Made by a program: the position numbers and the translations under genes. Of a stretch of DNA of 35,744 nt, positions 16,881 through 34,471 are shown piece after piece (within the stretch, counting starts at the first letter, position 1; each line of letters starts with the position of its first letter). This DNA is from Candidatus Helarchaeota archaeon (lineage in GTDB: Archaea; Asgardarchaeota; Lokiarchaeia; Helarchaeales; RDOG01), in the NCBI GenBank assembly GCA_029838215.1, contig JALGVI010000025.1, positions 1 to 35,744 on the forward strand, written 5' to 3'. A model generated the notes under the pieces. That model ran no database searches. It saw nothing but the letters and a program-made list of their open reading frames with translations, and was not told where the DNA came from.

Positions 16881-17279
16881 TCATTTAGCCTTTACGTTTT
16901 CCTGAATGAAGTTCACGATATCGGGAATCATTGACCCGGGACCATAGACATTTGCAGCACCAATCTCCTTCAATGGATCATAGTCTTTTTTAGCAATTGC
17001 GCCACCAACTAGAACGATGACATTATCCTTGATCCCTTTTTCTTTCATGAGATCGATGACACGCTTTGTGTACTTGAGGTGCGCTCCCGAGTGAATGCTC
17101 AGTCCTATCATGTGAACATCCTCTTGGATTGCAGTCTCAACGATCTCTTCAACCGTTTGGAAACCACCAAAGATGACTTCCATTCCTGCATCGCGTAGTC
17201 CTCGTGATACTACTACGATTCCTCGCCAATGACCATCAATTCCGGGTTTAGACATTAGCACTCTGATTTTTTCTGGCAT
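16881..17279 (-). CDS. Cobalamin-binding small subunit of an acyl-CoA mutase
   Basis: KPGIDGHWRG (DxHxxG), IQEDV, SIHSGAH, VLVGGAI. Confidence 0.95.
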   Translation of the reverse strand: MPEKIRVLMSKPGIDGHWRGIVVVSRGLRDAGMEVIFGGFQTVEEIVETAIQEDVHMIGLSIHSGAHLKYTKRVIDLMKEKGIKDNVIVLVGGAIAKKDYDPLKEIGAANVYGPGSMIPDIVNFIQENVKAK

Positions 17280-17297
17280 TTTTTGTACCAGCTCCGT

Positions 17298-18974: not shown

Positions 18975-19365
18975 GATAATCAAGCCAAAAACATTAGTCA
19001 TGAATAATATCAAAGGAAACAAGAGTTCCAAATTGTGTAATTATACCAAGATTACATTTTTTAAAGTTTTCAATTATCACAAATGTTTCAAATTCGTGGT
19101 CGAAATCTGTTGAGAAACATCCAAGTTTTGAAGAGTTGGCACTAAAAAGATAAAAATCCTTTAGATTCTGAAAGAATGGACTGGAGCATTTAACGGACAT
19201 GTTCAGCATGAATGAAAGGGACTTGTCTTGCAATTAAAGTGTCAAGATTTCTTCAAATTACGAAACATTTAATTAAAAATTCTCAATTGGATTTTCAGAA
19301 TTTCCCTTCAAGGGAAAACATTTAAGATAAGAACTAGTGCGATCGGAACTATTCGAGGTTTAAGA

Positions 19366-20346
19366 ATGAGTGGAAAGAAGCCAGATTTAGAAGAGCTCAT
19401 AAAACAATTCAAAGAAGGTAAAAAATTAGCTCTTTCACGCTTAATCACATTGGTTGAAAATGATCCCATCCTTGCTAAGGAAATTTTCAAGCATTTTAAT
19501 AATTTGTTGGAAAAGGCCTATGTCGTTGGCATAACAGGTCCTCCGGGTGCGGGAAAAAGCACTTTGGTTGACATCATGGCAAAAAAAATCGTTGAAAAAG
19601 GAAAATCTGTTGGCATCATATCCGTGGACCCAACATCGCCATTTTCCGGTGGAGCATTTTTAGGCGACCGAATACGCATGAAACATTCAGTTGCAAGTGA
19701 CCCAAACGTGTTCATGCGAAGTATTGCTTCGCGTGGTGTTTCTGGAGGGCTTTCCAGAGCAATATTTGACATCACGTTATTATTTGAAGCATACGGTAAG
19801 GATATCATAATCATAGAAACAGTTGGAGCGGGTCAATCGGAAGTGGATATCTTTGAAATGGCTTACACTACAATAGTCGTAAGCGTTCCGGGGTTGGGCG
19901 ACCAGATACAGGTTCAAAAAGCAGGCATCATTGAAATCGCAGACATTTTAGTCGTGAATAAAAAGGACCTCGGTGGAGAAGATGTTGCAGTGGCATTAGA
20001 CCTGATGTTAGATGACGTATTTTCATATGGAATGGGACAGGGGTGGCGCCCACCCGTAGTAATGACCAATGGCATTACGGGAGAAGGTGTCGACCTGTTA
20101 ATCGAAGAAATCTTTAACCACAAGCGCCATATCGAACTTACCGACATCCTTGAAAAGAAAAAGAGACACAAGATCAAGAAGAAGATACACGACATCATCC
20201 TTACCACGATCGAAGATTACATAAATAAGAACATAATTAATGAAGAAAAACTTGAAGAAGTCCTAAAAAGAATCGAGAAAAAAGAAGTGGGAATGTTTGA
20301 GGCGGCATATGATATTTTTGATGAATATCTTGAGAAATTAAAATAG
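19366..20346 (+). CDS. meaB: MeaB/ArgK/MMAA GTPase chaperone of B12 mutases
   Basis: ITGPPGAGKST, VDPTSPFSGGAFLGDRIRM, ETVGAGQSE, NKKD. Confidence 0.97.
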   Translation: MSGKKPDLEELIKQFKEGKKLALSRLITLVENDPILAKEIFKHFNNLLEKAYVVGITGPPGAGKSTLVDIMAKKIVEKGKSVGIISVDPTSPFSGGAFLGDRIRMKHSVASDPNVFMRSIASRGVSGGLSRAIFDITLLFEAYGKDIIIIETVGAGQSEVDIFEMAYTTIVVSVPGLGDQIQVQKAGIIEIADILVVNKKDLGGEDVAVALDLMLDDVFSYGMGQGWRPPVVMTNGITGEGVDLLIEEIFNHKRHIELTDILEKKKRHKIKKKIHDIILTTIEDYINKNIINEEKLEEVLKRIEKKEVGMFEAAYDIFDEYLEKLK

Positions 20347-20385
20347 GGGGGATAAAAAATATCAAGAATAAGGCTTAAAAAAGGC

Positions 20386-20895
20386 ATGGTTCAAGTCTAT
20401 TACGGAAGAGGAAAAGGTAAAACCACGGCGGCTCTGGGACAGGCTTTTCGTGCCTGCGGACATGGTTTTAGAGTTTACATGATTCAGTGGATGAAAGGCA
20501 ATATTAAGTACGGAGAGCTTAAATCGGTTCAAAAGTTCGATAATTTCACGATCGAGCAGTTTGGACGCAAGGATCTCATTGCAGAACCCGAAGAGATAGA
20601 TATCGTTGAAGGTAAGAAGGCTCTTGATCGTGCTCGTGAAATCATCAATAGCGATGAGTATGATATCGTTATTTTAGATGAAGTTGGAGTTGCAATTGGA
20701 ATGGGCATCATAAACGTGGATGATGTCATCGAAATAGTAAAGAATCGTCCTGAAAAAGTCGAAGTCATAATGACTGGTGGTCCAGAAACGCACCCGAAGT
20801 TGCTACAGCTGGCAGACCTCGTCACGAACATGCGAGTCATCAAGCATTACTATGCCGCCCAAGGAATCGATGCACGGTTCGGAATAGAATTTTAA
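20386..20895 (+). CDS. cobO: ATP:cob(I)alamin adenosyltransferase (CobA/CobO/BtuR type)
   Basis: YYGRGKGKTTAALG, QWMKG, ILDE, EVIMTGG, KHYY...GIEF. Confidence 0.93.
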   Translation: MVQVYYGRGKGKTTAALGQAFRACGHGFRVYMIQWMKGNIKYGELKSVQKFDNFTIEQFGRKDLIAEPEEIDIVEGKKALDRAREIINSDEYDIVILDEVGVAIGMGIINVDDVIEIVKNRPEKVEVIMTGGPETHPKLLQLADLVTNMRVIKHYYAAQGIDARFGIEF

Positions 20896-21036: not shown

Positions 21037-21465
21037 ATGTTCATGGTAAAAGTAGGTGATTATGAACTTCCTGACGACCTGTATTACACGGATAAGCATA
21101 CTTGGGCGAAAGTCGAAGGAGATAACGTCCGAGTTGGTGTAGATGCCATTGGCGTGGCACTAGCCGGCAAGATCATCTTCGTTCGCGTTAAAAAAGTAGG
21201 GAAAGAAGTGAAAGCAGGCAAGAATTTCGGGACTGGTGAAGCAGGAAAGGGGGTCATTCCTTTGGTTGCTCCAGTTACAGGAGAGATTGTCGAAACAAAT
21301 CCAAAAGCAGGCGGGCGAGAAGTAAAAGCCGTGAATGAAGATCCTTACGGAGAAGGCTGGCTTGCAGTGATCAAGCCGACAGGGGATAAGGATTCTGAAC
21401 TCGGTGCACTAAAACACGGCGACAACGTTGTAGCATGGGCAGAAGAAGAAATCAAGCAAATTTAA
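21037..21465 (+). CDS. GcvH/LbpA-like lipoyl-carrier protein 1
   Basis: YTDKHTWAKV, VRVG, lipoyl motif GEAGKG (Lys71 at 21247-21249), APVTGEIVE, DPYGEGWL. The true start may be ATG 21043. Confidence 0.92.
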   Translation: MFMVKVGDYELPDDLYYTDKHTWAKVEGDNVRVGVDAIGVALAGKIIFVRVKKVGKEVKAGKNFGTGEAGKGVIPLVAPVTGEIVETNPKAGGREVKAVNEDPYGEGWLAVIKPTGDKDSELGALKHGDNVVAWAEEEIKQI

Positions 21466-21585
21466 TTTTTTTCTCGCCCATTTATTTATTTTAGGACTAG
21501 TTTTTGAGAAGTACAACCAAAGTCCCATCATGCTTTATAAATAAAAAAACCTTGTAATCTTGAAAATCTACTGCAAGAAGGATGC

Positions 21586-22059
21586 ATGATAACCATGCCA
21601 GCGATTGATGGATATGACTTCCCCGAAGACGTGTTGATAAATGAACACAACTTATGGACGAAGCCGGCTCCTGACGGAGAGAATTATGCAATAGGAATCA
21701 CGGATTTTGCGCAACAGAATTTAGATAGCATTACCTTTGTAGAAATAGTTCTCGAAGAAGGTGAGCAGGCAAAATATAATCGACCCTTCGGTGCGCTTTT
21801 GGCTAGCGGCAAGGGATCGATCACGTTATACAGTCCATTAACGGGTGAAATAGTGGAAATAAATGAACGATTAGATGACGAACCTGCCTTGATCAAGCAG
21901 GATTGTTATGGTGAAGGTTGGATAATGAAAATAAAACCATCAAAGATCGAAGAGGAAACCGACAAGTTAATGGCGCCGGGTTCAGAACATTTTAAAACAT
22001 GGCAATTAAAAGAAATTGAACGTGTAAAAAAAATAAATGAAGAGTTAAAAAACAAGTAG
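21586..22059 (+). CDS. GcvH/LbpA-like lipoyl-carrier protein 2
   Basis: IGITDFAQ, LASGKG (Lys76 at 21811-21813), SPLTGEIVEIN, DCYGEGWIMKIK. Confidence 0.9.
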   Translation: MITMPAIDGYDFPEDVLINEHNLWTKPAPDGENYAIGITDFAQQNLDSITFVEIVLEEGEQAKYNRPFGALLASGKGSITLYSPLTGEIVEINERLDDEPALIKQDCYGEGWIMKIKPSKIEEETDKLMAPGSEHFKTWQLKEIERVKKINEELKNK

Positions 22060-22077
22060 AACTAGGAGGTTAAATGA

Positions 22078-22980
22078 ATCTCTTATGTACTTTTTCTAGG
22101 ATGCACTACGCCCGTTCGGGCTTTAAATTACGAAGTATCATTACGAAAATTGCTTGCTTTTTTTAACATTTCCTTGATCGATACAGATGAATTCACGTGT
22201 TGTGCACCTTCTTTTATTTCTACAATAAATCCAAAGACGGCTCTTCATGTTGGTGCAAGAAATCTGGCTGTAGCAGAAAAAATTAATGCCACGATCATCA
22301 CGCCTTGCTCGGGTTGTTTCAAATCGTTGAAAGAAGTCCAAGATGAGTTGAGTAAGGATCCAAGTAAAGTCAACATGATAAATGACTTTCTTTCAAAAAC
22401 AGGAAAAAGGTATGAAGGAAAAGTCAAGGTCAAGCACGTGATGGAAGTAATAATGGATGATATAGGGATCGAAACCATAAAAAAGCGCGCTAAACATTCA
22501 CTTCGAGGATTAAAAATTGCACCTTATTATGGATGTCACTTGATACGCCCATCCAACATTTCCCAGTTTGATGACCCGGAGATTCCGAGAAGTCTGGATT
22601 CCATTATCGAAAAGTTTGAAGGCACCAGTCTTGATTATGAAGGCAAGTTGGACTGCTGTGGTGGCCCATTAAAAACCATTAATGACGAAATTAGCCTTGA
22701 ATTATTAGACATTAAATTGAAAAGCTTGAAAAAAAAATCGGTTGATGCCGTGATTCTTGCATGTCCCTTTTGCTTTTTCCAATTTGAGTTTGGACAAAAA
22801 GAAATTTTAAAAGAAAGAGGCGTTAAATATGACATCCCAATTCTTACGGTCACGGAAATGTTGGGTTTGCTATTGGGACTGGAACCCAAGGAGTTGGGAT
22901 TCGGTCTCCACATTGTCAAGACTAAATCATTTTTATCAAAATTTCAAGAAATGAATGGAAAAGAGGGGGAAGGAAAATAG
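22078..22980 (+). CDS. hdrB: Heterodisulfide reductase subunit B (copy 1); 5' end extended beyond the ORF track, start codon anomalous
   Basis: The frame is open from ATC 22078 and encodes SYVLFLGCTTPVRALNYE, the first CCG-domain Cys. It then shows CCAP, PCSGC, YYGCH, CCGG and CPFC, so two CCG domains; about 300 aa. Confidence 0.92.
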   Translation: MSYVLFLGCTTPVRALNYEVSLRKLLAFFNISLIDTDEFTCCAPSFISTINPKTALHVGARNLAVAEKINATIITPCSGCFKSLKEVQDELSKDPSKVNMINDFLSKTGKRYEGKVKVKHVMEVIMDDIGIETIKKRAKHSLRGLKIAPYYGCHLIRPSNISQFDDPEIPRSLDSIIEKFEGTSLDYEGKLDCCGGPLKTINDEISLELLDIKLKSLKKKSVDAVILACPFCFFQFEFGQKEILKERGVKYDIPILTVTEMLGLLLGLEPKELGFGLHIVKTKSFLSKFQEMNGKEGEGK

Positions 22981-22981
22981 G

Positions 22982-23536
22982 ATGACGACTCCAAAAGAGG
23001 TCGTAAATTACGATGAATTAGATTCAAGTTTCATCATCGAGTTAAAAAAAATGGTTGGAGATGAAATCCTTGCTTGTTTTCAATGTGGAATGTGCACGGC
23101 AGGATGTCCTTCAGCACCATTCGGTTACAACATTCGCCAAATCTTGAAATTAGCCATTTGGGGATTTAGGAATGAATTGCTCGAAAGCGATTTCATTTGG
23201 TTCTGCACGGAATGTGGAAAATGTGCAGAACGTTGCACCCAAAACATTGAGCCATATAAAATCATTTTAGGAATACAAAGATTAGCTGCAAGACAAGGCA
23301 ATATCCCTCTTACGGTATTGCATCGCATTAAGCAGTTCATGAAGAGCGGTCGCGTCGTAGAGGTTGATGAACTCACGGAGCTGAAACGTGAGAGATATGA
23401 ATTACCAAAATGTGATAAAGAATTGCCGGAAAGTGTGATGAGAGAACTTGAAGCGATTTTGGATATGACAGAATTTCGAAAATCCTATAAAGACCGAGTA
23501 TCGAACAAAGATTCAGGAGATCGAAATCAAGAATGA
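22982..23536 (+). CDS. hdrC: Heterodisulfide reductase subunit C (copy 1)
   Basis: CFQCGMCTAGCP and IWFCTECGKCAERCTQ. The ATG is 1 nt after the hdrB stop, and there is an ATGA overlap with hdrA. Confidence 0.93.
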   Translation: MTTPKEVVNYDELDSSFIIELKKMVGDEILACFQCGMCTAGCPSAPFGYNIRQILKLAIWGFRNELLESDFIWFCTECGKCAERCTQNIEPYKIILGIQRLAARQGNIPLTVLHRIKQFMKSGRVVEVDELTELKRERYELPKCDKELPESVMRELEAILDMTEFRKSYKDRVSNKDSGDRNQE

Positions 23537-25482
23537 CGAGTTCAGATCAACCCAAAATCGGCGTTTTTATTTGTCATTGCGGAACCAACATCGCAGGCGT
23601 GATCGATGTAAAAAGAATCGTGAATGAACTACAACGGGCAGATAATATTCATGTCGTGAGACATTATGAGTTCATGTGTTCAGAGCATGGTCAAGAGCTC
23701 ATTAAAAAGGCAATTGAGAAACAGAAGATCAACCGAATCGTCGTGGCCTGTTGCAGCCCCAAATTCCACGAAAAGACATTTCAAAGATGCTTGGCTGCAG
23801 GTGGTATCAATCCTTTCTTTGTAGAAATCGCGAACATAAGAGAGCAATGTTCTTGGGTTCATAAGAGCAAACCTAATGAAGCAACTGAAAAAGCAATTAA
23901 AATAATAAAGGGAGCCGTTGGAAAAGCATTACATCTGAAACCCATTGAAGTCATTACAGTACCCATTATTCGTGAAGTAGTTGTTATTGGTGGCGGGATT
24001 GCAGGAATACAGGCGGCTCTCGATATAGCAGATACAGGAACCAAGGTCCATATTATCGAAAAATACGTGAGCCTGGGAGGCAACATGGCTCGCACGGAAA
24101 AAACATTTCCGACAAATGATTGCGCCATGTGCATTCTCTCCCCAAAGCTCAACGATGTACGAAGTCATGACAACATCACGATTCATACAATGTCTGAAGT
24201 GAAAAAAGTAGATGGCTTTCTCGGCAATTTTGTGGTCACCGTTGAAAAGAATCCGCGGTTTGTCGATGAAAAAAAATGCATTAATTGTGGAAGATGCATT
24301 GAAATCTGCCCAGTTGAAGTCCTCGATGAATGGCAATTAAACATGGGATTTCGGAAGGCAATTCACGTGCCATTTGCCCAAGCACTCCCTTCCTGTCCCG
24401 CCATCGATGAAAAAAATTGCACGAAATGCGGTAAATGTGAAGAGAAGTGCCCTACAAACGCGATAAACTTGAAGGAGACCAAACAAACCATTACATTAAG
24501 AGTTGGAGCGATCATTACAAGCATTGGTTGGGAAGAATGGGATCCGTCGCCAATAGTACAGTATAGATACGGACAAAATAAAAACGTGATAACTCAATTT
24601 CAATTCGCAAGATTATTGGATCCATTTGGTCCCACTGATGGAAAAATTCTGACTGCAGAAGGAAAATCGGTAAAAAGAATCGTCATGATTCAATGCGTTG
24701 GATCTAGAGATAAACGATATAACCAGTATTGCAGCACGGTATGTTGCATGGCAGCTTTGAAACACGCTCAATTAGCAAAGATGGAACATGATTCAGAAAT
24801 AGATGTCATAATCTGCCATCAAGAAATGAGAACACCAAAAAAACGACATGAACAATATTTTACGAATGCAAGAGAAATCGGAGTTAAATTCATCCGTGGA
24901 AGACCTTCAGAGGTTTTAGAAGATCCCGACTCGGATCAGTTGATTGTCAGGGTTGAGGATGAAGAACTACAGAAATTATTTTCAATCAAGACTGATTTGG
25001 TCGTGTTATCTACTGCTACTGTTGCGTCAAAAGATACGGAGAAACTCGCACGCATATTAGGTATCGATGTTGATGCCGAGGGGTTTGTGGCAGAGTTGCA
25101 CCCAAAATTAGCTCCTGTAGAAACAAAGGTTGCAGGAATTTTCGTTTGCGGTGCCTTACAAGGTCCAAAAGATATCCCTGATTCGGTTGCTCAAGGAGGA
25201 GCGGCTGCCGCCAAGGTAATCGCAACGTTCAGTAATCCTGTTATAAAGAAAAATCTTGAAATTCCCGAAATAAATCAAGACCTTTGTGTTCTTTGCGGTA
25301 CCTGTGTTGAATCGTGCAACTTTTCGGCATTAACAAAACACGATAAGCTAAAAAAAATCGTAGTTCACGCACTGAAATGCGTTGGATGTGGCATGTGCAT
25401 GCAGGCATGTCCTACAGGAGCATGTCAATTAAAAACATATCGGGATGATCAACTTCATGACCAAATCCAACAAATAATCTAA
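23533..25482 (+). CDS. hdrA: Heterodisulfide reductase subunit A, methanogen-type full-length (649 aa)
   Basis: GVFICHCGTNIAG, ACCSP, NIREQCSWVH, IGGGIAG, KTFPTNDCAMC, inserted 2x[4Fe-4S] domain, QCVGSRD...CSTVCCMAALK, C-terminal 2x[4Fe-4S] domain. Confidence 0.97.
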   Translation: MTSSDQPKIGVFICHCGTNIAGVIDVKRIVNELQRADNIHVVRHYEFMCSEHGQELIKKAIEKQKINRIVVACCSPKFHEKTFQRCLAAGGINPFFVEIANIREQCSWVHKSKPNEATEKAIKIIKGAVGKALHLKPIEVITVPIIREVVVIGGGIAGIQAALDIADTGTKVHIIEKYVSLGGNMARTEKTFPTNDCAMCILSPKLNDVRSHDNITIHTMSEVKKVDGFLGNFVVTVEKNPRFVDEKKCINCGRCIEICPVEVLDEWQLNMGFRKAIHVPFAQALPSCPAIDEKNCTKCGKCEEKCPTNAINLKETKQTITLRVGAIITSIGWEEWDPSPIVQYRYGQNKNVITQFQFARLLDPFGPTDGKILTAEGKSVKRIVMIQCVGSRDKRYNQYCSTVCCMAALKHAQLAKMEHDSEIDVIICHQEMRTPKKRHEQYFTNAREIGVKFIRGRPSEVLEDPDSDQLIVRVEDEELQKLFSIKTDLVVLSTATVASKDTEKLARILGIDVDAEGFVAELHPKLAPVETKVAGIFVCGALQGPKDIPDSVAQGGAAAAKVIATFSNPVIKKNLEIPEINQDLCVLCGTCVESCNFSALTKHDKLKKIVVHALKCVGCGMCMQACPTGACQLKTYRDDQLHDQIQQII

Positions 25483-25931
25483 ACTTCAGGGTTTTCTGGT
25501 ATTCGTTCTCTAATTTTCTTCTCCAATTTTCCGAGTTGGTATATTTTCTTCGTGAATTCACTTGCGACTTTGACCCACTCTCGAGCCATGCTTGCACTGA
25601 TAAAATGCATTTCAATTCGAGCGGGGCTGATGCCAATCTCTTTAAAGATATCCTGCACGAATTTTACGAGTTGTTCTGCACGATAATTACCACCAGAGTT
25701 ATTTCCCGTTTCATAATGACATTGATCTTTTAAACATCCACTAATAATTACACCATCTGCTCCCGACACGAATGCTTCTAAAATAAGGGGCAAATCCACC
25801 CGTCCAGTGCAAGGCACTCTTACTATTTTAATATTAGTAGGATATTCAAAACGGCTCATACCAGCTAAGTCTGCTGCCGCATAAGTGCATTCATTACAAA
25901 TCAATGCAAGGATGTTTATTTCATTCGACAT
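25479..25931 (-). CDS. mvhD: MvhD/FlpD [2Fe-2S] subunit
   Basis: CNECTYAAADLAG, RVPCTGRV, GADGVIISGC...CHY. ATG 25931 preferred over 25973. Confidence 0.95.
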   Translation of the reverse strand: MSNEINILALICNECTYAAADLAGMSRFEYPTNIKIVRVPCTGRVDLPLILEAFVSGADGVIISGCLKDQCHYETGNNSGGNYRAEQLVKFVQDIFKEIGISPARIEMHFISASMAREWVKVASEFTKKIYQLGKLEKKIRERIPENPEV

Positions 25932-26156
25932 GGTAATCAAAGCTGGTCTTCTCGATGATTTGGAAAAAAACATTTAAAAGCTAAGTTACACTATTCCAAA
26001 CAATCAGATTAAAATTTCCTATCTAAAAAAAATACGATGAAAATCTATTTTTCAAGGTCTTTTAGTCTGTTAGGGTGAAATCACGCCCATTACAAAATAA
26101 AAAGAATTAAAAAAAAGGAAAAAATAAGCATAAGGAAAGATTCAAGAGTTGTTTTT

Positions 26157-26648
26157 ATGGAAGAAACCTTAGAATTTTCTGTTGTATCAGAACTTGGTCC
26201 GAGAATGAAAAATATTAATGTAAAAGCGAAATGTGAGAGCATCAATGAGGTTCGAGAGGTCACGTCCCGTGGTGATGGAAGCACTCACCGCGTAACTGAA
26301 GCGGTCATTGGGGATGAAACCGGATCGATTTTACTTACGATTTGGGATGACACGATCGATCGTATTACGATTGGAAATTCATACGTCGTTAAAAATAGTT
26401 ACACGTCTCTCTTTCGAGGATCTTTACGGTTAAATCTCGGTCGTTATGGCGAACTTGAAGATTCAGATGAAGAAATCGAAACAGTCAATACCGAGAATAA
26501 TTTATCTGATAAAGTATATGAAAGTCCACGTAGATTTCAAAGAGGACCGAGACCTGGAGGCAGTTATGGTCGAGATCGACGAGATAGAGGACCTCCAAGA
26601 TACCAACGGAGAAATCCCCGTGGAAGAAGCAGAGGTAGTAGATACTAA
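26157..26648 (+). CDS. ssb: Single-OB-fold single-stranded DNA-binding protein with an Arg/Gly-rich tail
   Basis: VTEAVIGDETGSILLTIWD, YTSLFRGSLRLNLGRYG; low-complexity R/G/P tail. Confidence 0.9.
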   Translation: MEETLEFSVVSELGPRMKNINVKAKCESINEVREVTSRGDGSTHRVTEAVIGDETGSILLTIWDDTIDRITIGNSYVVKNSYTSLFRGSLRLNLGRYGELEDSDEEIETVNTENNLSDKVYESPRRFQRGPRPGGSYGRDRRDRGPPRYQRRNPRGRSRGSRY

Positions 26649-26721: not shown

Positions 26722-27606
26722 TTAGGCAATTTTTGCCAATAGTGGGTTCAGTTTCACCCTATGGAACTTCACACCCAATTCTTTAGGTTTTTCACCAAAT
26801 GCAAGTGCTAAATACTCGGCAAAATATAAAACAGGTATCTTGTAATCAGCACCTTCGAATTGCTTGTTGACTTTTGATTGACCCATTTCAAATTGGGAAT
26901 AACAAGCGGGACAAATGACAACGAGTGCATCGGCATTCATGCGTTTTATTTGTTTAAGTTTTGATTCAAGCATGCTCAACTGTGCACTTTCAACTATCCC
27001 AGAAATTGCAGAACCACAACACTGATATTTCTTGAGATATTCAATGCTTTTAGCACCTGTTGCGGTTATGACCTTATCAAGAGACGTGGGTCTTATGGGA
27101 TCATCAAAGTTCAAGATATAACTAGGGCGACCATAATGACAACCATAAAAAGTTGCAATCCTGAGACCCGACATGTCTTTTGAAGAAGCTTCCGTGATTT
27201 TTTCCATTCCGATGTCTTCATGCAAGAGTTCCAAGAGATGTTTGACTTCTATCGTGCCCTTATATTCCTTGCCAACTTTTGAAAGAATCTCATTGACTTC
27301 TTCAAGTTTCTGTCCATCGTGCCGTAATTCGTGCCAAGCCGTCTTGAGCGTTTCAAAGCATCCATTGCACATTGTGAGAATGTCCATCTCTTTTTCTTCA
27401 GCAATGCACAGATTGTAGGCTGCAGAAGCAAGCCACGTGCTCTCCCGAATATTATGCATTCCCACGGGATCCGGACAACATCCGAAATCAGGAACGTCCT
27501 TGTATTTTATATCTAATTTATCCATCACTTTTCGACCGGCAATTTCAACATAGGGGAAACGATTTGCAATCAAACAGCCGACAAATAAGGCATATTCATC
27601 GCTCAT
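26722..27606 (-). CDS. hdrB: Heterodisulfide reductase subunit B (copy 2)
   Basis: FVGC, GCCPDP, MCNGC, FYGCH, CCGS, CPAC; all 10 CCG-domain Cys present. Confidence 0.95.
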   Translation of the reverse strand: MSDEYALFVGCLIANRFPYVEIAGRKVMDKLDIKYKDVPDFGCCPDPVGMHNIRESTWLASAAYNLCIAEEKEMDILTMCNGCFETLKTAWHELRHDGQKLEEVNEILSKVGKEYKGTIEVKHLLELLHEDIGMEKITEASSKDMSGLRIATFYGCHYGRPSYILNFDDPIRPTSLDKVITATGAKSIEYLKKYQCCGSAISGIVESAQLSMLESKLKQIKRMNADALVVICPACYSQFEMGQSKVNKQFEGADYKIPVLYFAEYLALAFGEKPKELGVKFHRVKLNPLLAKIA

Positions 27607-28124
27607 TCATTTGCAACCTCCTGACTTGCAGGCTCTTCTTTTTTCTTAATATATTCGACAAATCCCGTTAATTCGCAGATTTTCTTGAAGTCTTCTACGT
27701 TTGGACGCGTGATGTTTTCATCCAGCCCCAGCTGCTTCCGACGCCGAGCAATGGCAGGACTGCTGGGAATATTAAGAGCATTATTGTAAAAGCCTTCACC
27801 TTCAGCACGAAATACCTCAGGCAAATGGCCACGTTCGACAGATAAATTGCGTAATTCAAACATGATTTCGGATACTAAAACAGATTGGGGACAAACTTCT
27901 AAACAGGAATGGCACGTCGTGCAGTTCCATAATACGGGGTCATCTAGTATTTTTTCCTTGAATCCTAAAAGAGCATTTTCAACAATCTTTCGTGGATTGA
28001 AAGTGCGGGTGAATCGCGCCGCAGGACAAATTCCCGTGCACGTGCCACATTGATAACAGTAATTGATAGTCTTCCCAATTTCCGACTCGCTTAATTCCTT
28101 TCGAAATACGCTAGAAATCGTCAT
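27603..28124 (-). CDS. hdrC: Heterodisulfide reductase subunit C (copy 2)
   Basis: CYQCGTCTGICP and LWNCTTCHSCLEVCPQ; ATGA overlap with hdrB copy 2. Confidence 0.95.
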   Translation of the reverse strand: MTISSVFRKELSESEIGKTINYCYQCGTCTGICPAARFTRTFNPRKIVENALLGFKEKILDDPVLWNCTTCHSCLEVCPQSVLVSEIMFELRNLSVERGHLPEVFRAEGEGFYNNALNIPSSPAIARRRKQLGLDENITRPNVEDFKKICELTGFVEYIKKKEEPASQEVANE

Positions 28125-28258: not shown

Positions 28259-31200
28259 TCATTTTTTCTTAGCCTTGCGAAGATAAGAGTTGGCTTGCTC
28301 CGAGAACCTCTTGACTTTTTCAGTATATCCTAACCGAGAAGCAACCCGAGCTGCCTTTTTGTACAACTGTCCAGCCTTGGTATAATTGTTTTTTCTTACT
28401 TCGAATCGAGCATCACCTAAAAGATCGGATAATTGAATTTCCAAGTTCTTACGTTCTAGTTTACTGAGAGGTTTTGTTTCTACAGGGACTTTTTTCTTTG
28501 GCTTCGGTTTCTTTACGGTTTTGATGCTCTTAAGTGCTTTTTTCTTTTCTTTTTCAATGCGTTCTTCAATTAACTTCTGCTCTCTTAATTCTTCTTCCTT
28601 TCGCTGTTCGGATAATTGCTTGATGATTGATTTAACCTTGCTCGCGGGAATTGCGGGTTTTTCCTTCCTGCGAAACTGATATATCATGATAGCACCCGCA
28701 ACAAGGATAATGATGACTCCAAAAATCAGAAATATTTCCCACGGGATATATGGAGGGGGAATTACGGGAGGTCGTGGCGTGACAGTGAGTTGGAAGACAA
28801 AACTCATAGTTTCATCATCAGAGTCAACGAGAACGATTCGAAGAGTCCATTGTCTTGTATTGTAAGATAAATCAGCAAGATCATCTTCGTCAAATTCATA
28901 ATAAATAATAGATGAATTTCCAGTGACCGATGTATTAACTAATTCTTCAAGACCACCATCATTGTCATCAATTTGAATGGAAAATTCTTTTAAGCCTTCA
29001 AGGTCAGAAAAGTTAAGTTGCATTGTCAATGTCATACCCTCATAAAAATCATAATTAGGAGGATAAATCTGGAGTAATGAAATAATTGGGGCATTATTTA
29101 CTACCGTGAAATTATAGGATGTCGTTGTTTCATTAATTCCACCTTCTTCATCTTCAACAGTCACGTAAAATGTCCAGTTTCCAGTTTCATACGTGGTCAG
29201 GGGTGTCCAATCCAGATACCAAGAATTAGAACTCGCGTTGAAATCCATAGAAATGTTATACCATTGGCTATTCTTGTAGCAATAAAGGCTTGCATTTACC
29301 GTGAGATTCGCTCCTCTACTAAATACGTCAATATCACTGGCATTTGCAAGAAAGGTGATATTTTGAGTCCGATACACGCTAGAAGCAGGTTGATAAATTT
29401 CAACGATGTTTGGGACGTGATTCACCACGGTAATGATGGAAGTAGTATTAAAAGTAAGGGCGTCATTCTCACGATCTCTCAAGTAGAGGAATACAAGCCA
29501 AGATCCGGCACGATCAAGAGATGTAAATACATATGAAAATGTCCAGTTAGACGTGTTATACTTTGCACCCCCAACGTCATTCACGAATTTCATTGTTCGA
29601 TTTAACCAGATATCATGTTCGATGTTTAATAATTGAATTTCGGCGTAAACCCCTGTCTTATTATAATTCAATACTTGAATCTGAATGAAATCTACGTATC
29701 CATTAGTTGTAAGGTTAGTCGTATTCAATTGGAAGAAAATCTCAATCCTGTTGTTTTGGACGTTGTTAATTATATCAGTAATTTCGCTACCCGTAAAATT
29801 AACCGTTGTCGTAACGTCAGACGTGCTGTTAAATACAGTTCCATTGATGAGATCGGGCTGATTGGTTGTCCAATTCATGATTTTCCAACCTGCGAAAGTT
29901 ACGTTTGTGGTCTGGCTAATTTTTGCTTGCACGGTCACTTCAATCCCACCAATGCCACTTCGATCGAATCCGTAATTAGTAAGGTTAATGTAATATGGAA
30001 TGGATACAAAACCGCTCGAATCATTTTCAGCATAATGATAAACAGAATCATCGGTGAAAGTGTTTTCATGACGTCCGTAGAAGATGCCAGCCGAGGTCTC
30101 AAGAATAGAGGCGTTTCCATCTATTTGTAAAGAAGTATTAACATCACTTGCAATAAAATCGTCAATATCTTTCAAGGTAGTATTTAATGAAAAAGTCTCG
30201 TTCACGCGATAAACGGTAGTGTTTTCAATCTCGAATGATTCAACTTCTGGAGCCCAATTATCCACATATACATAACCGATATATTTAGCACCGTGGAGAG
30301 CTGTTGAGATGGCAGATTCTCCATATTCATCATAGCTCTGAACCTCAACATAAATGTCATATCGCCCAACGGGGTCGTATTCGGTAAAATTGTAAGAACA
30401 GTTCCACCAACTTTGACTTTTATACCAGTAAGTATTGTAAGGTGAAGAATAGTCTTCGATGTCCATTAACATATCCATTGATTTGTTTATCCAATGGTCC
30501 ATTGTAGCTGATTTCAAACATAAAGTCGCATTAAATTCGTAGTCGTCATTATCACGATATCGATCGTCATCAAGATCAGCAATCACTGCAGTAACATTTA
30601 GTGTTTCATTTATTCGTCGAATGTGCTGATTCTCAGGATTTGTAACTTGAGTATAATTTGTTGCATTATATCGAATATGAATTGCGGTATCAGGATAACT
30701 CCCTCCAGTTTTGACTTCAGGTCTGGCGGATATTAACGTAACATTATGTGAAAATGCTTGTAGGTCATCATAATTTCCTAAACTCTCAACAAATAACCAA
30801 TCATAACGAACTGGACCGAGTTTTGCACCGTCTTCAGTATGAAAACCGGGACCTAGAGTATCAACAGGAGCTTTTATCACGATATTGTATTCTCGACCGC
30901 TAAAATTCTCGGGCAAAAAATCATCCGAAATAGAAGTGTCAGTATAATTATGAATAAAGGTCTGGAATATATATCGGGTACTCGGTTGGAAAACCGTTCC
31001 ATTAATATAAATTCTAAATTTGGTATAAGGATCATTATTCGGATCAATGTAATCATCGATATCCGTAACATTAGCCCAAACTTCAGATCCTGGAGTTGCT
31101 ATGTGATAGTTTTTTCGTCGTAGGTAAGAAAATACGTCATGAAGTAATACTTTATAGTTCCCTGGGATGTACAATTCTTCACCCGCGCTCGGGATTCTCT

Positions 31201-34200
31201 GCTCGGGATCCCCAAACAAGACGAATTGATGATAGTCCTCACTATTATCGGGAAATCCACTTTCCTCTTGGATGTCATTTCTCCAATTTTGTGAATATAC
31301 CCGGGAAGTGGAATTTAATCCTAAGGCAAGACTCATTCCGATAGTATTATTATTTTGGATGGCTTGCTGTAGAAAAATGGAAAATACTTGTTCGGAATAA
31401 CCCAGCATGTTTTCACGATAATTTGCAATGAGTGAAGATGTCCCAAGACTCATGAACGTACTGGGCAAGGTTGTTGCAGCTAAATAATCGTCATTTAACA
31501 GAATGATGCTTACATTTATCCCTTCTGGCGGTGAATCGGAAATGAACTCACTTTCATTTTTAAAGAAACCATTTGAATTATTTACAGGATTGATTAGGAG
31601 TGGATCGTCGGCAGATTTTCCGTCATCAAATCCTCTCCAATAATCAATAGCACCTTCAAGAAAATTCATGGCACCCATTTCGCCATCATTACCATTCGAT
31701 TTCACACCATATCCACAATGATACCATAGAGCAGGTCCCACGCTAAAGTTGTCTAAAATATTATTATAACCAGTCGTATTCCAAACATCATAATTTGCAG
31801 TTGATAAGATCTCCGGAATTTCAGAAGAATAATTATGTTGGCTATTGTCAAATGTCAAGTTATGCCAATAGGATACGGAAGAGAAAAGTGCTCTTTGACG
31901 GGCAAACGGACCTTTATCATAGCTTATGTTGAATTGCACGAAGTCTATACTGGCATTAATATAATCGGTCGAATTAGATGCATTAAAATAAAAATCAATT
32001 TTTATTTGATTTGTCAAATTCCCAACGTAATCAGTAATGTTATAATTTTGAAGCAAGATCACTTCATATTGTTGATCAGAAGTTGAATTAAATATGGAAT
32101 CATTAATGACATCATAGTCATTATTCGTCCAATTCCAAAGTCTAACGCCAGCAAATGTCACGTTTTCAGTTAGATTTGTTTTGGCTTTTAAATGAACCCA
32201 GATCTGGGTTATGTTGTCCTTATTGATGTTGAGATCTCGCGTTCCATTATCAAGGTCAATATAGAAAGGAACGTCTATGTACCCATTCGAGTCATTCAAC
32301 CAAGAATAATAACTCCCATCGTTTTCGTATGTATTCTCGATCGTGCCTTCAATTGGCACTCCTTGACTTGTCTGAATTCCTGCGGCGTGTTCACCAGTCA
32401 AATTCGTGGGAAAATAGATTTCTTTATAATCGGGTGATAATTCACGATAGATAAAAAGAGGAGCAAAGATACTTCGTTGAATTTCTATTGAGTTATTTAC
32501 ACCAGTTTCACCCGGAAATCGACCCACGATGAATTTATCCAGCCCTATTATTGCACGGTCAAGCGTCAGGCGGAGATCAGTCGTGGGAGATACGATGATC
32601 ACGGTTCGATTCTTTACATCAGGGTTTGCCTTATCAAGATTACTCATCCAAGATTCGAAAGTGGTCGACAGATTGACCATGTCTTCATATAAAGGAGCCG
32701 GACCCGAGAAGGGATATTGAAAGTACGTTGTATTAAGCAATTGATAATTCTGATATGCTTGTTGATACACGGTATTTGATTCATTGACACAAGGTAATAC
32801 TACACCACCATGATATGCAGCCAAGAATGCAGCAGGAGCGAAATGACCATCCTCCAAGGATGATAGAATAACATCATGTTCACTGCTGAGATTATAGATG
32901 AATTCAATTATCGATGTCATGTTTTCTAATGCTGTTATTGTAGTAAGGTTCCAAGATTCTAATGATTGAGTGAAAATAGTCTGATTGATGGTGTTTCCGG
33001 GTTCTACGAATATTGCTTCATCGGGTTGCAATTTCTCAATCACTTGTTGGACCATTTCGGAAGGAATGGAAGAATCATTCACGTATAAAATTGGAACGTG
33101 TAACAAGGATGCTATCACCGCTGCATTCGACGCAGAAAGTGCAACATCTTCTTTTATGGATGAGAGATTTGTTTTAGTTACCGTGATGTTGTAAGAAAAA
33201 CTGTTCGTTTCCAGTTCTTTTGACGTGATATATAAATTCCATTGCCCCTTTAAAGGATGTTCAACACTAATGCTTCCACCATCATTCGAACGTTCTACTA
33301 ACTGTCCATTTGGATCCAATAACCAAACCTGACAGCGGCTATCGTTAACACTAAATTGTAATCTAATATTTGAATTGTCAATGTTAAATTGATGCGAAGC
33401 ACCGCTTGAATTGAAAAAAGTCAGATTATAATATTCAATTCCAGAAAATGCCGTTTTATTATAGACCTTTAACAGCCAATCGGAGCTATTGGCAGGATGC
33501 GTCACGTTGGGAAAGAACACGTAATCATTTGATGTAAAATTATTTGTATCAAACACCCATTGCGAAGCAACGGTCTGTGAGCCATTTCCAATAAGTTCTA
33601 AGCCAAATAAATCATTTTGCGTGTTATTTATTCGCATGAACAAGAATTCCCCTTGAATTGTCATGTTACTGGAGTTATATTGCTGCAAAGTAGACCCCGA
33701 ACTGTCAAGGCTTCCAAGGATATTCTGTGTTTCAAAAGGATTAACAGTTCCCGAAAATGATAACGTTTCATTTGCGCCATCACTAAGACTTTCATTACCA
33801 AATGCGACAATTATTTTTGAATTATTGAACCAAAAATAATCTGCAATTGATGCTGACAGGTCGAAAATGTTTTCAACAGAAAAATTCAAGGGAGCAAGTT
33901 CATCACCTGCGATATAAGAATAATTAAGGGCAGGTTCAATTTCATTTCGAACATTATTTGGAACATCACCAACATACAGGATTCGTTTCAAACCACCATC
34001 TCTAATTGTGGCGGAACCCCTCCGATCTTCCATGAAATAATTGTTATAACGTCTCCAGTCATCAAGTAATAGGCGTGTACTCTCATCTAAACAATCATAT
34101 ATAATTGGAGAAATCTTAAAAATTCCAGAATCGTTAAAAATCGCATTAGGAAGAATGCTCAGGTAAGCCAATTCATCAAAAAAACTCGAATCATTTTGAT

Positions 34201-34471
34201 GCACAACCGTTAAAATTTGTAATGGAGCAAAATCAGGATTAAATGCTTGCTGGATAATGTCCTTGTCATAAAAAGATGAAGGAGGATCAGATAATCCAGT
34301 TATTGGAACGGCAGTCGGTTCATTTACAGGGGAAAAATTGCCCGACATGAATGAATTACTTGCCATCATACTAAAAATCATTTGAGAAGCAAGTGGGATT
34401 AATATTGAACTTAATAAAATTAGGGCTGTGAATGATATACCGTAAAACCTGCAATTTTTCATGATTCTCAT
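28259..34471 (-). CDS. Giant (2070 aa) single-pass surface glycoprotein: CWB2-like repeats, PPC-like domain, C25/gingipain-like fold, Ig-like domains, TM helix, cytoplasmic Lys-rich and helical domain
   Basis: N-terminal hydrophobic signal, very dense NxS/T sequons, AVIASLLHVPILYV (CWB2-like), WLLDPNGQLV...PLKGQWNLYI (PPC-like), VLFGDP, Pro-rich linker, TM IFLIFGVIIILVAGAIMIY, RRKEK. Confidence 0.85.
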   Translation of the reverse strand: MRIMKNCRFYGISFTALILLSSILIPLASQMIFSMMASNSFMSGNFSPVNEPTAVPITGLSDPPSSFYDKDIIQQAFNPDFAPLQILTVVHQNDSSFFDELAYLSILPNAIFNDSGIFKISPIIYDCLDESTRLLLDDWRRYNNYFMEDRRGSATIRDGGLKRILYVGDVPNNVRNEIEPALNYSYIAGDELAPLNFSVENIFDLSASIADYFWFNNSKIIVAFGNESLSDGANETLSFSGTVNPFETQNILGSLDSSGSTLQQYNSSNMTIQGEFLFMRINNTQNDLFGLELIGNGSQTVASQWVFDTNNFTSNDYVFFPNVTHPANSSDWLLKVYNKTAFSGIEYYNLTFFNSSGASHQFNIDNSNIRLQFSVNDSRCQVWLLDPNGQLVERSNDGGSISVEHPLKGQWNLYITSKELETNSFSYNITVTKTNLSSIKEDVALSASNAAVIASLLHVPILYVNDSSIPSEMVQQVIEKLQPDEAIFVEPGNTINQTIFTQSLESWNLTTITALENMTSIIEFIYNLSSEHDVILSSLEDGHFAPAAFLAAYHGGVVLPCVNESNTVYQQAYQNYQLLNTTYFQYPFSGPAPLYEDMVNLSTTFESWMSNLDKANPDVKNRTVIIVSPTTDLRLTLDRAIIGLDKFIVGRFPGETGVNNSIEIQRSIFAPLFIYRELSPDYKEIYFPTNLTGEHAAGIQTSQGVPIEGTIENTYENDGSYYSWLNDSNGYIDVPFYIDLDNGTRDLNINKDNITQIWVHLKAKTNLTENVTFAGVRLWNWTNNDYDVINDSIFNSTSDQQYEVILLQNYNITDYVGNLTNQIKIDFYFNASNSTDYINASIDFVQFNISYDKGPFARQRALFSSVSYWHNLTFDNSQHNYSSEIPEILSTANYDVWNTTGYNNILDNFSVGPALWYHCGYGVKSNGNDGEMGAMNFLEGAIDYWRGFDDGKSADDPLLINPVNNSNGFFKNESEFISDSPPEGINVSIILLNDDYLAATTLPSTFMSLGTSSLIANYRENMLGYSEQVFSIFLQQAIQNNNTIGMSLALGLNSTSRVYSQNWRNDIQEESGFPDNSEDYHQFVLFGDPEQRIPSAGEELYIPGNYKVLLHDVFSYLRRKNYHIATPGSEVWANVTDIDDYIDPNNDPYTKFRIYINGTVFQPSTRYIFQTFIHNYTDTSISDDFLPENFSGREYNIVIKAPVDTLGPGFHTEDGAKLGPVRYDWLFVESLGNYDDLQAFSHNVTLISARPEVKTGGSYPDTAIHIRYNATNYTQVTNPENQHIRRINETLNVTAVIADLDDDRYRDNDDYEFNATLCLKSATMDHWINKSMDMLMDIEDYSSPYNTYWYKSQSWWNCSYNFTEYDPVGRYDIYVEVQSYDEYGESAISTALHGAKYIGYVYVDNWAPEVESFEIENTTVYRVNETFSLNTTLKDIDDFIASDVNTSLQIDGNASILETSAGIFYGRHENTFTDDSVYHYAENDSSGFVSIPYYINLTNYGFDRSGIGGIEVTVQAKISQTTNVTFAGWKIMNWTTNQPDLINGTVFNSTSDVTTTVNFTGSEITDIINNVQNNRIEIFFQLNTTNLTTNGYVDFIQIQVLNYNKTGVYAEIQLLNIEHDIWLNRTMKFVNDVGGAKYNTSNWTFSYVFTSLDRAGSWLVFLYLRDRENDALTFNTTSIITVVNHVPNIVEIYQPASSVYRTQNITFLANASDIDVFSRGANLTVNASLYCYKNSQWYNISMDFNASSNSWYLDWTPLTTYETGNWTFYVTVEDEEGGINETTTSYNFTVVNNAPIISLLQIYPPNYDFYEGMTLTMQLNFSDLEGLKEFSIQIDDNDGGLEELVNTSVTGNSSIIYYEFDEDDLADLSYNTRQWTLRIVLVDSDDETMSFVFQLTVTPRPPVIPPPYIPWEIFLIFGVIIILVAGAIMIYQFRRKEKPAIPASKVKSIIKQLSEQRKEEELREQKLIEERIEKEKKKALKSIKTVKKPKPKKKVPVETKPLSKLERKNLEIQLSDLLGDARFEVRKNNYTKAGQLYKKAARVASRLGYTEKVKRFSEQANSYLRKAKKK
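29660..30075 (-). repeat. Internal protein-level repeat, copy 2 (about 140-aa beta domain)
   Basis: ENTFTDDSVY...NDSSGFVSIPYYINL...NVTFAGWKIMNWT...FNSTSD...YVDFIQ aligns by eye with copy 1. Confidence 0.75.
31920..32340 (-). repeat. Internal protein-level repeat, copy 1 (about 140-aa beta domain)
   Basis: ENTYENDGSY...NDSNGYIDVPFYIDL...NVTFAGVRLWNWT...FNSTSD...SIDFVQ. Confidence 0.75.

Follow-up and report, generated by a model that had tools for sequence, protein, structure and literature searches.

Lipoyl-carrier genes juxtaposed to hdrBCA in a Helarchaeales archaeon: a candidate lipoyl-protein-linked heterodisulfide reductase module

Introduction

Homologues of the heterodisulfide reductase (Hdr) complex HdrABC are abundant in non-methanogenic anaerobes, for example in syntrophs, acetogens and sulfate reducers and, among the archaea, in Asgard archaea and Bathyarchaeia. 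In sulfate reducers, the substrate of a catalytic CCG-domain subunit is a dithiol/disulfide (trisulfide) borne by a small protein, DsrC, which interacts with DsrK, the HdrD-like CCG subunit of DsrMKJOP; in this case the redox group is a cysteine pair and not a lipoyl arm, and the partner is a membrane complex and not HdrABC. Here, we analysed a stretch of 35,744 nucleotides from a Candidatus Helarchaeota archaeon (hereafter the window), in which two genes of the GcvH family, H1 and H2, coding for putative lipoyl carriers, are located upstream of a methanogen-type hdrB-hdrC-hdrA set.

A lipoyl-protein/Hdr-like system has been characterised in the case of sHdr-LbpA: LbpA is essential for sHdr, its lipoate-attachment lysine is strictly conserved, and two cysteine residues are present near its N- and C-termini, both missing in some archaeal LbpAs (PMC6067878). 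The deep branches of the published LbpA phylogeny are without support. An shdr cluster codes for a short sHdrA and sHdrH with either C2B2 or B3-etfAB-emo, next to TusA, DsrE or rhodanese genes, and LbpA is served by a dedicated LplA-type ligase and the lipoyl synthases LipS1/LipS2. In Culexarchaeia, GcvH has already been proposed, in passing, as a disulfide carrier for HdrB/HdrA2B2C2 (PMC9723716), and the disulfide substrate of Hdr in non-methanogens is usually written as an 'unknown heterodisulfide', as in the case of Asgard archaea (PMC11291895). Our literature search returned no paper in which an H-protein/HdrBCA-MvhD system is described or tested, be it for Asgard archaea or for the bacterial lineages named below. 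The initial annotation of the window had stated that no characterised system of this architecture is known, which was too strong in view of sHdr-LbpA (PMC6067878) and of the Culexarchaeia proposal (PMC9723716). Nor is the architecture itself confined to this DNA, since clusters combining an H-like gene, hdrC, hdrB, full-length hdrA and mvhD were also found in Bacillota.

The functional link between lipoyl-H proteins and Hdr that we propose is a prediction, well supported by comparative genomics. According to the reading that we tentatively prefer, H2, and probably H1, would be lipoylated carriers with no part in the glycine cleavage system (GCS) and would provide a protein-bound dithiol/disulfide substrate for HdrB-type CCG modules.

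Results

The window is one contig (C62) of a genome of 3.62 Mb (G000) that is 94.3% complete in 170 contigs, so that individual genes can be missing. As initially annotated, H1, H2, hdrB1, hdrC1 and hdrA were all located on the + strand (21037-25482). The stop codon of H2 (22057-22059) precedes hdrB1 by 18 nt, in agreement with the gap of less than 20 nt and the intervening GGAGGT first described, and the coupling of hdrB, hdrC and hdrA was confirmed by overlaps of 26 nt (hdrB1/hdrC1) and 4 nt (hdrC1/hdrA). The features of the block are the following:

21037..21465, + strand: H1, GcvH-family lipoyl carrier, 142 aa (Pfam GCV_H, E 7e-29)
21586..22059, + strand: H2, lipoyl carrier of the GcvH family, divergent in sequence, 157 aa (154 aa with the ATG at 21595 as start) (GCV_H, E 6e-27)
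22065..22070, + strand: GGAGGT Shine-Dalgarno-like site in the H2/hdrB1 gap (read from the sequence)
22078..22980 (approximate), + strand: hdrB1, methanogen-type HdrB with two CCG motifs and 10 cysteines (CCG, E 2e-23; TIGR03288, 244 bits)
22955..23536, + strand: hdrC1, ferredoxin-like, two [4Fe-4S] motifs (Fer4_8/Fer4_9; TIGR03290, E 5e-28)
23533..25482, + strand: hdrA, full-length, 649 aa, bifurcating-type flavin/Fe-S HdrA (NF040770 HdrA2, 749 bits)
25479..25973, - strand: mvhD (FlpD), separate gene of 164 aa, tail-to-tail with hdrA with a 4-nt overlap (FlpD, E 4e-44)
26157..26648, + strand: single-stranded DNA-binding (OB-fold) gene, ssb (Ssb-like_OB, E 3e-14; also in locus L013)
26722..27606, - strand: hdrB2, second methanogen-type HdrB (TIGR03288, 300 bits; CCG, E 2e-27)
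27603..28124, - strand: hdrC2, partner of hdrB2 (Fer4_8/Fer4_9/Fer4_17)
28259..34471, - strand: protein of 2070 aa after hdrC2 (open reading frame, ORF; homologues at the same position in relatives)

HdrA was correctly described at first as full-length: it covers positions 1-640 of the 777 of the HdrA2 model (NF040770), with four Fer4 stretches and an FAD fold. The MvhD attributed to it is not fused but encoded by a separate gene of the opposite strand; it matches positions 644-776 of the same model, and this placement is kept in L013. The hdrB2C2 pair, located 1.2 kb further on, is part of the same conserved block. H1 is probably transcribed from its own promoter, ending at an oligo-T stop, the ssb gene is probably functionally unrelated to the Hdr block, and the 2070-aa ORF is a possible member of the H/Hdr system.

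We then considered the H proteins themselves. Both keep the lipoyl lysine in the G-K-G context noted in the initial annotation, AGKGV (EAGKGV) in H1 and SGKGS (ASGKGS, Lys76) in H2, and this column was invariant across 31 aligned H-like proteins. H1 scored 84.0 bits with TIGR00527 and 109.5 bits with PRK01202, H2 92.0 and 94.2 bits, all of them below the curated gcvH cut-offs of 115.85 and 117 bits, respectively. No cysteine is present in H1, and a single internal one, in QDCYGEGW, in H2. The AlphaFold model of H2 (pLDDT 94) exhibited the GcvH fold, with a TM score of 0.9 to 1onl/3ab9, Lys76 in a hairpin turn and an extra C-terminal helix (134-156). The complex prediction of HdrB1 (28-row alignment) with H2 (31-row alignment) gave a score of 0.01 (mark, 0.32), which speaks neither for nor against an interaction.

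In a tree of the 31 proteins, unrooted and weak at its deep nodes, H1 grouped with Hdr-linked H-like proteins from a Bathyarchaeota metagenome-assembled genome (MAG) and from the metagenomic contig P0171 (support 96/95), H2 formed a long-branch clade of its own (100/99), and a third H protein of the genome, H3 (C5:12858-13290; L001 1495-1929), was placed with canonical GcvH. H1 and H2 are thus placed apart from canonical GcvH in this tree, in support of the initial view that they are not bona fide GCS H proteins. H3 has the canonical ESTKAVSD motif and reaches one curated gcvH cut-off. It is located directly upstream of a MetE-like methyltransferase gene, a pair that echoes the gcvH-methyltransferase linkage reported in other Asgard archaea (PMC11291895).

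The alignment also revealed that the canonical [VT]-K-[AS]-x-S-[DE] is replaced by G-K-[WG] in most Hdr-linked H-like proteins: H1 reads EAGKGVIPL, H2 [AQ][SA]GKG[SW]ITL, and the bacterial and DsrE-linked type ESGKWVGRI. The exceptions are P0152 and P0155, which retain the canonical ESVK, and P0171, which has SSKF. This G-K-[WG] motif may be a signature of non-GCS carriers.

The presence of a glycine cleavage system and of lipoylation genes was investigated in the window, in the rest of its genome and in six relatives, i.e. seven Helarchaeales genomes. A scan of the window showed no GCS P, T or L gene, no 2-oxoacid dehydrogenase and no mcr gene, as initially reported. GcvP (GDC-P) and GcvT (GCV_T) had no match in the window's genome nor in any of the seven, control genomes being matched as expected, which supports, from gene content, that H1 and H2 do not serve glycine cleavage. 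Genes for lipoylation were found. A lipS2-lplA-lipS1 operon is located on C46 (LipS2 362 bits, above 270; LipS1 290 bits, above 230) and a second cluster with LipS2-like, radical-SAM and LplA-like genes on C1. There are four LplA-like genes in total, those of the C46 operon and of the C1 cluster and two further ones, none of them inside the H/hdr cluster; one of the two (C74) is 58% identical to a ligase encoded beside an H-like gene in the sister genus. A search for LipA (TIGR00510) gave only a weak radical-SAM match in the genome, and lipoyl synthesis is thus predicted to proceed by LipS1/LipS2 and not by LipA.

The profile search for the Biotin_lipoyl domain returned nothing in the whole genome, rich as it is in lipoylation genes; apart from the three H proteins, no lipoyl acceptor could thus be detected. 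The sole 2-oxoacid_dh match is an ORF of 283 aa comprising the E2 catalytic domain alone, without a lipoyl domain (C165:51057-51908; L138 7058-7909); it is flanked by ferredoxin-like genes and could act on a free-standing lipoyl-H protein. Dihydrolipoyl dehydrogenase (E3) is present (467 bits, above the TIGR01350 cut-off of 408.8), as in 6/7 genomes of the order. The E3 gene heads locus L142 (C92:12692-27000), with a 13-kb Hdr supercluster lying about 1.6 kb downstream of it on the same strand. The order after E3 is two uncharacterised ORFs, HdrA-like, HdrA/MvhD fusion, Fer4, HdrC, HdrB, HdrA, MvhD, Oxidored_q6-like, HdrC, HdrB.

These data bear on whether H1 and H2 could be ordinary GCS H proteins, or lipoyl-relay donors for enzymes encoded elsewhere, that stand beside hdr by chance. 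Their GCV_H matches and retained lipoyl lysine fit such a role, an E3 and the E2-catalytic-domain ORF exist, and genes can be missing from a genome of this completeness. Against it, GcvP and GcvT are missing in 7/7 genomes, a relay would have no lipoyl-domain acceptor, both proteins fall below the gcvH cut-offs and outside the canonical clade, and the H-hdr adjacency is conserved and recurrent, as described below; we regard this explanation as very improbable.

Within Helarchaeales, H2 orthologues (50-68% identity) were confined to the family of the window and were in all cases next to an hdrB. The neighbour is hdrB1 in L013, L134 and the window, and hdrB2 in L009, L010, L014 and L015. H2 and hdrB1 are separated by 3 nt in L134, by about 12 nt in L013 and by 18 nt in the window; the recurrence of this tight junction in three assemblies is more than chance would give. 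Two arrangements could be distinguished. In type A (window, L013, L134), H2, hdrB1, hdrC1, (Fer4) and hdrA are on one strand, together with mvhD. In type B (sister genus GCA_019058315.1 and three metagenomic contigs), the order is cdhC, H1 (-), H2 (+), convergent hdrB2-hdrC2 and a giant ORF. Both types have in common H2, hdrB2C2 and the giant ORF, between which type A inserts hdrB1C1A-mvhD-ssb. The orthologues of hdrB2 are 68-79% identical in L009, L010, L013, L014 and L015, and those of hdrC2 64-86% in all related loci. Counterparts of the giant ORF, of 2033-2052 aa, are present in every related locus reaching past hdrC2 (L009/L053, L010, L013 and L014, the last cut by the contig end); homologues in L053 and L013 are 35-55% identical, and the relatives' copies are without a Pfam hit on record. 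H1 orthologues are distributed across the order with 62-74% identity. Independently of these arrangements, an H-like gene and a gene for an HdrD-like protein (Fer4_8 and two CCG domains) converge in family f2. The best candidate for an HdrB1 orthologue in the sister genus, at 49% identity, was rejected, being in a different hdr cluster with no H gene nearby.

At the H2-hdrB1 junction, no ATG, GTG or TTG is present ahead of the conserved YVLFLGC motif of hdrB1, and the ATG at 22074 is out of frame. An ATC at 22078, 7 nt past the Shine-Dalgarno-like site, is the start of the conserved HdrB N-terminus. In L013, whose H2 is 68% identical, the same ATC follows GGAGGC, with ATT replacing the ATG of the window (L013 1811-1850), and the GGAGG-to-ATC spacing is 7-8 nt in both. 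In L134, hdrB1 starts with GTG, 3 nt past the H2-like stop. A sequencing error was ruled out, because the ATC and the missing canonical start are common to L013, and read-through from H2 into hdrB1, which are in the same frame, was ruled out by the three in-frame stops that separate them. It is therefore probable, from this comparison, that hdrB1 starts at the non-canonical ATC 22078, which possibly reflects translational coupling to H2 or regulation by H2. Gene callers shorten hdrB1, the L013 copy being called as 201 aa.

The gcvH-hdrB synteny was not only conserved in the window's family but also recurrent in unrelated lineages. Species-representative genomes were scanned with an HdrB alignment, giving 80 loci from other lineages. 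An H-like gene lies no more than 4 kb from hdrB in 11 of them (Bathyarchaeota, Bacillota, Syntrophaceae, Desulfomonilaceae, Stahlbacteria and others), and in none of the 12 methanogen or anaerobic methanotrophic archaea (ANME) loci of this sample. The observed adjacency of 14% compares with less than 1% by a rough estimate assuming 1-3 H genes per genome and an 8-kb window. On the HdrB tree (94 rows), the H-linked label required 8 changes, versus 16.7 in shuffles (0/500 as low), a difference inflated by kinship. In the one Bathyarchaeota locus, an H1-like gene (49% identity) is divergent from hdrC-hdrB, with an LplA gene nearby. In the four Bacillota loci, the H-like gene is directly upstream of hdrC-hdrB, full-length hdrA is next in three, and mvhD is present in both loci that are long enough. 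Further H-linked loci come from Syntrophaceae, Desulfomonilaceae and two deltaproteobacterial MAGs. The contexts of distant H1 homologues contain CCG, HdrA or FlpD genes in 4/4 cases, among them L135, in which an H-like gene and a split E3-like gene are followed by HdrA-like/FlpD genes, and L137, an Ehd/Ehe-like H-like-HdrB-hydrogenase cluster.

The H/Hdr pairing is thus, in terms of gene neighbourhood, not confined to the window. It may mark a widespread class of bifurcating Hdr, spanning Helarchaeales, Bathyarchaeia, Culexarchaeia-like lineages, Bacillota, Desulfobacterota and Stahlbacteria, in which a lipoyl arm would replace CoM-S-S-CoB (the heterodisulfide of coenzymes M and B, CoM and CoB) or DsrC as substrate and E3 would provide the link to NAD(H); this extension is possible, and we put it forward with marked reserve.

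Several of the loci include sulfur-relay genes. Two H-linked loci have DsrE genes, one of them also DsrH (L084, L111), and L136 is a tusA-dsrE-H-like-[NiFe]-hydrogenase-HdrD-like-lplA cluster. In a further, independent association in the sister genus (G006:C5:1372500-1380700, L042), LplA-like, H-like, DsrH, DsrE, DsrE and AsnC genes face genes for DsrE2-like, HdrC, HdrB and a 1014-aa HdrA-like protein. This cluster is sHdr-like; its H-like gene is missing from the window's genome, in which the related ligase on C74 is kept.

An LbpA-like role can be envisaged from such loci, with the dihydrolipoyl arm bringing sulfane sulfur (persulfide/polysulfide) to Hdr for sulfur oxidation or reduction. 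L084, L111, L136 and the sister-genus cluster all tie sulfur-relay genes to H-like and CCG genes, there is the sHdr-LbpA precedent (PMC6067878, PMC11094781), and the two hdrBC pairs around one hdrA resemble the type I sHdr order (C1B1A-H-C2B2). Several features of the window argue the other way: no DsrE, TusA, rhodanese or other sulfur-transferase gene was detected by the window scan, the two conserved LbpA cysteines are both missing in H1 and H2, HdrA is of the full-length bifurcating type with MvhD and not a short sHdrA, and the H-like protein linked to DsrE in the sister genus shares just 38-40% identity with H1 and H2. Taken together, we consider an LbpA-like role of this locus improbable.

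We next examined the Hdr repertoire of the genome. Ten cysteine residues of HdrB1, C9, C41, C42, C77, C80, C153, C193, C194, C229 and C232, were invariant in 28 aligned HdrBs. The bit scores of all subunits were below the curated cut-offs, with 244 for HdrB1 and 300 for HdrB2 versus 345 (TIGR03288), 98 for HdrC1 versus 160 (TIGR03290) and 749 for HdrA versus 1100. In the HdrB tree, HdrB1 was in a starred clade, with HdrBs of Bathyarchaeota and Jordarchaeia as its neighbours, one of them the H-linked Bathyarchaeota sequence. HdrB1 and HdrB2 were both outside the methanogen HdrB clade, and the methanogen HdrBs grouped with another paralogue of this genome (C92:20508).

The initial annotation had assumed an organism free of Mcr and CoM. 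This premise fails: an mcrB-mcrG-mcrA-like operon with an A2-like ABC ATPase is present on contig C27 (C27:57500-63700, L146; tblastn and Pfam), with 211 bits for MCR_gamma, 230 for MCR_beta and 189 for MCR_alpha_N, and McrA-like genes occur likewise in all six relatives. The search with PF02249, the MCR_alpha C-terminal domain, found nothing in the genome, while it matched all six relatives; the McrA-like protein of the window's genome reaches 23 bits only. This is a false negative, because the C-terminal domain of the McrA-like protein is divergent, and screens based on PF02249 alone can wrongly call such genomes Mcr-free. ComA (PF02679) was found in none of the seven genomes, Mcr-bearing ones included, which is uninformative on CoM use. 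With its alkyl-CoM-reductase-like enzyme, the organism is, by gene content, typical of Helarchaeales (compare PMC6478937).

A number of observations weigh against a lipoyl protein as the substrate. The Mcr-like genes of this genome and its relatives imply that CoM-S-S-CoB is available as a possible Hdr substrate. HdrB1 and HdrB2 retain the full set of methanogen-type cluster ligands, and the best solved match of HdrB1 is the HdrB of M. wolfeii (5odc_B, E 6e-61). The Hdr repertoire, predicted from domain searches, is unusually large for 3.6 Mb, with 72 CCG-domain matches (about 36 HdrB/HdrD-like proteins), at least eight methanogen-type HdrB and at least six full-length HdrA paralogues and more than 12 MvhD, so that neighbourhood is weaker evidence than usual and genes are likelier to be adjacent by chance. 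In two other families, no hdr gene is present for several kb around the H1 orthologue, which is flanked by URO-D-like, AIRS-like and other genes, and in type B, H2 and hdrB2 are convergent, hence not co-transcribed. Finally, the redox potential of lipoyl disulfide is about -290 mV and that of CoM-S-S-CoB about -140 mV; the former would be a much weaker high-potential acceptor and the energetics of its reduction would be marginal.

An alternative is an ordinary CoM-S-S-CoB Hdr serving the alkyl-CoM reductase of this alkane-oxidising archaeon. H1 and H2 would then do something else, their adjacency reflecting shared regulation or inherited order, and might be C1/alkyl-transfer carriers acting with CdhC or with MetE/URO-D-like methyltransferases. 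Besides the mcrBGA-like operon and the complete CCG motifs, this explanation can draw on the neighbours of the H genes (cdhC beside H1 in type B, URO-D-like genes in family f3, the MetE-like gene beside H3) and on the neighbourhood (AFOR, for aldehyde:ferredoxin oxidoreductase, TrmI, TtuA, MobA-like), which is syntenic with the sister genus, so that some adjacency is simply inherited. It accounts poorly for the H-like/hdrCB(A) clusters in Bacillota, Desulfobacterota and Bathyarchaeota loci, lineages for which we know of no use of CoM or CoB, when 0/12 methanogen/ANME loci have them. Moreover, HdrB1 and HdrB2 are apart from the methanogen HdrBs, with which another paralogue groups, and the 3-18 nt H2-hdrB junction outlasts rearrangements of the surrounding genes. 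An ordinary Hdr at this locus is a serious, if rather unlikely, explanation.

The window encodes acyl-CoA genes (enoyl-CoA hydratase, thiolase, methylmalonyl-CoA mutase with MeaB and adenosyltransferase) and an AFOR gene. Directly upstream of H1 (16881-20895), genes for the large and B12-binding subunits of methylmalonyl-CoA mutase (-) are followed by those for ATP:corrinoid adenosyltransferase and, ahead of it, the MeaB GTPase (+); this position is taken by cdhC in the sister genus. Archaeal markers around the locus are an SSB/RPA-type OB fold, TrmI and TtuA (Pfam scans of the window). An Rfam scan of the window gave no family at the gathering score, and a scan for sigma-70 promoters and intrinsic terminators gave sites fewer or no more than in shuffled sequence, a model unsuited to archaeal promoters. 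On C2 (10100-14914, L143), a MerA-type pyridine-nucleotide disulfide oxidoreductase gene (TIGR02053, 558 bits, the N-terminal metal-binding domain being absent) precedes genes of the same strand for an HdrA-MvhD fusion of 790 aa and a polyferredoxin, and may represent another disulfide-reductase/Hdr coupling.

Discussion

According to our preferred reading, in which a lipoyl-H protein is the substrate of Hdr, H2, and probably H1, would be lipoylated by the LplA/LipS1/LipS2 system. H2-hdrB1-hdrC1-hdrA would form one operon, the products of which, together with MvhD and possibly HdrB2C2, would assemble into a flavin-based bifurcating or confurcating complex. The lipoyl arm of H2 (E0' about -290 mV) would be reduced or oxidised at the two non-cubane [4Fe-4S] clusters of HdrB1, perhaps also of HdrB2, in the place held by CoM-S-S-CoB in methanogens. 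HdrC1 would transfer the electrons to the FAD of HdrA, which would couple them to ferredoxin and, via MvhD, to a third partner, while the E3 encoded elsewhere would equilibrate the lipoyl-H pool with NAD(H).

The likeliest direction would be oxidative, dihydrolipoyl-H and reduced ferredoxin being confurcated onto a mid-potential acceptor. Confurcation is favoured over the use of lipoyl disulfide as high-potential acceptor because of the acyl-CoA and AFOR genes in the window and of the low potential of lipoamide. The host, an acyl-CoA/alkane-oxidising archaeon, probably lives in syntrophy. The Mcr-like enzyme and the many Hdr paralogues limit the claim to one or two specialised modules, which would not be 'the' Hdr of the organism.

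With a lipoyl protein that is small, can be expressed and has its gene 3-18 nt ahead of hdrB, there is a concrete and assayable candidate for an Hdr substrate outside methanogens. If the proposal is true, the role of lipoate would widen from 2-oxoacid and glycine metabolism and sHdr-type sulfur oxidation to electron bifurcation in strict anaerobes, the keeping of lipoate synthesis, H proteins and E3 in lineages without GCS or 2-oxoacid dehydrogenases would be accounted for, and models of Asgard energy metabolism would need revision. Should the class indeed be widespread, it would answer what Hdr does in many non-methanogens.

The Ehe cluster of Culexarchaeia (PMC9723716) resembles the present locus in that a non-methanogenic archaeon has a GcvH gene together with those for HdrB and a putative bifurcating Hdr, and both proposals are predictions. 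The Culexarchaeia system is centred on a group 4 [NiFe] hydrogenase, membrane-bound and accompanied by SdhA and CdhA, whereas the genes found here code for a soluble HdrBCA/MvhD and two H paralogues.

With the MvhADG-HdrABC complex of methanogens (5ODC), the locus shares a two-CCG HdrB with 10 cysteine residues, HdrC, a full-length HdrA and MvhD. It differs from it by subunits that score below the NCBIfam equivalog cut-offs, by the position of HdrB1 and HdrB2 outside the methanogen clade, by the H gene translationally juxtaposed to hdrB (0/12 sampled methanogen/ANME loci) and by the lack of adjacent mvhAG.

Compared with sHdr-LbpA, the 649-aa bifurcating HdrA and the separate MvhD contrast with the short sHdrA, genes for sHdrH, TusA, DsrE or rhodanese are missing from the cluster, both LbpA cysteines are absent in H1 and H2, and the maturation genes are outside the cluster. 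The host is also different, an anaerobic Asgard archaeon with an alkyl-CoM-reductase-like enzyme and not a sulfur oxidiser. In both cases, a lipoate-binding protein homologous to GcvH is genetically tied to HdrB/HdrC/HdrA homologues (PMC6067878, PMC11094781), LplA-type ligases and LipS1/LipS2 are encoded in the genome, and the H protein keeps its lipoyl lysine without a use in glycine cleavage. As in type I sHdr, two HdrBC pairs are found per HdrA.

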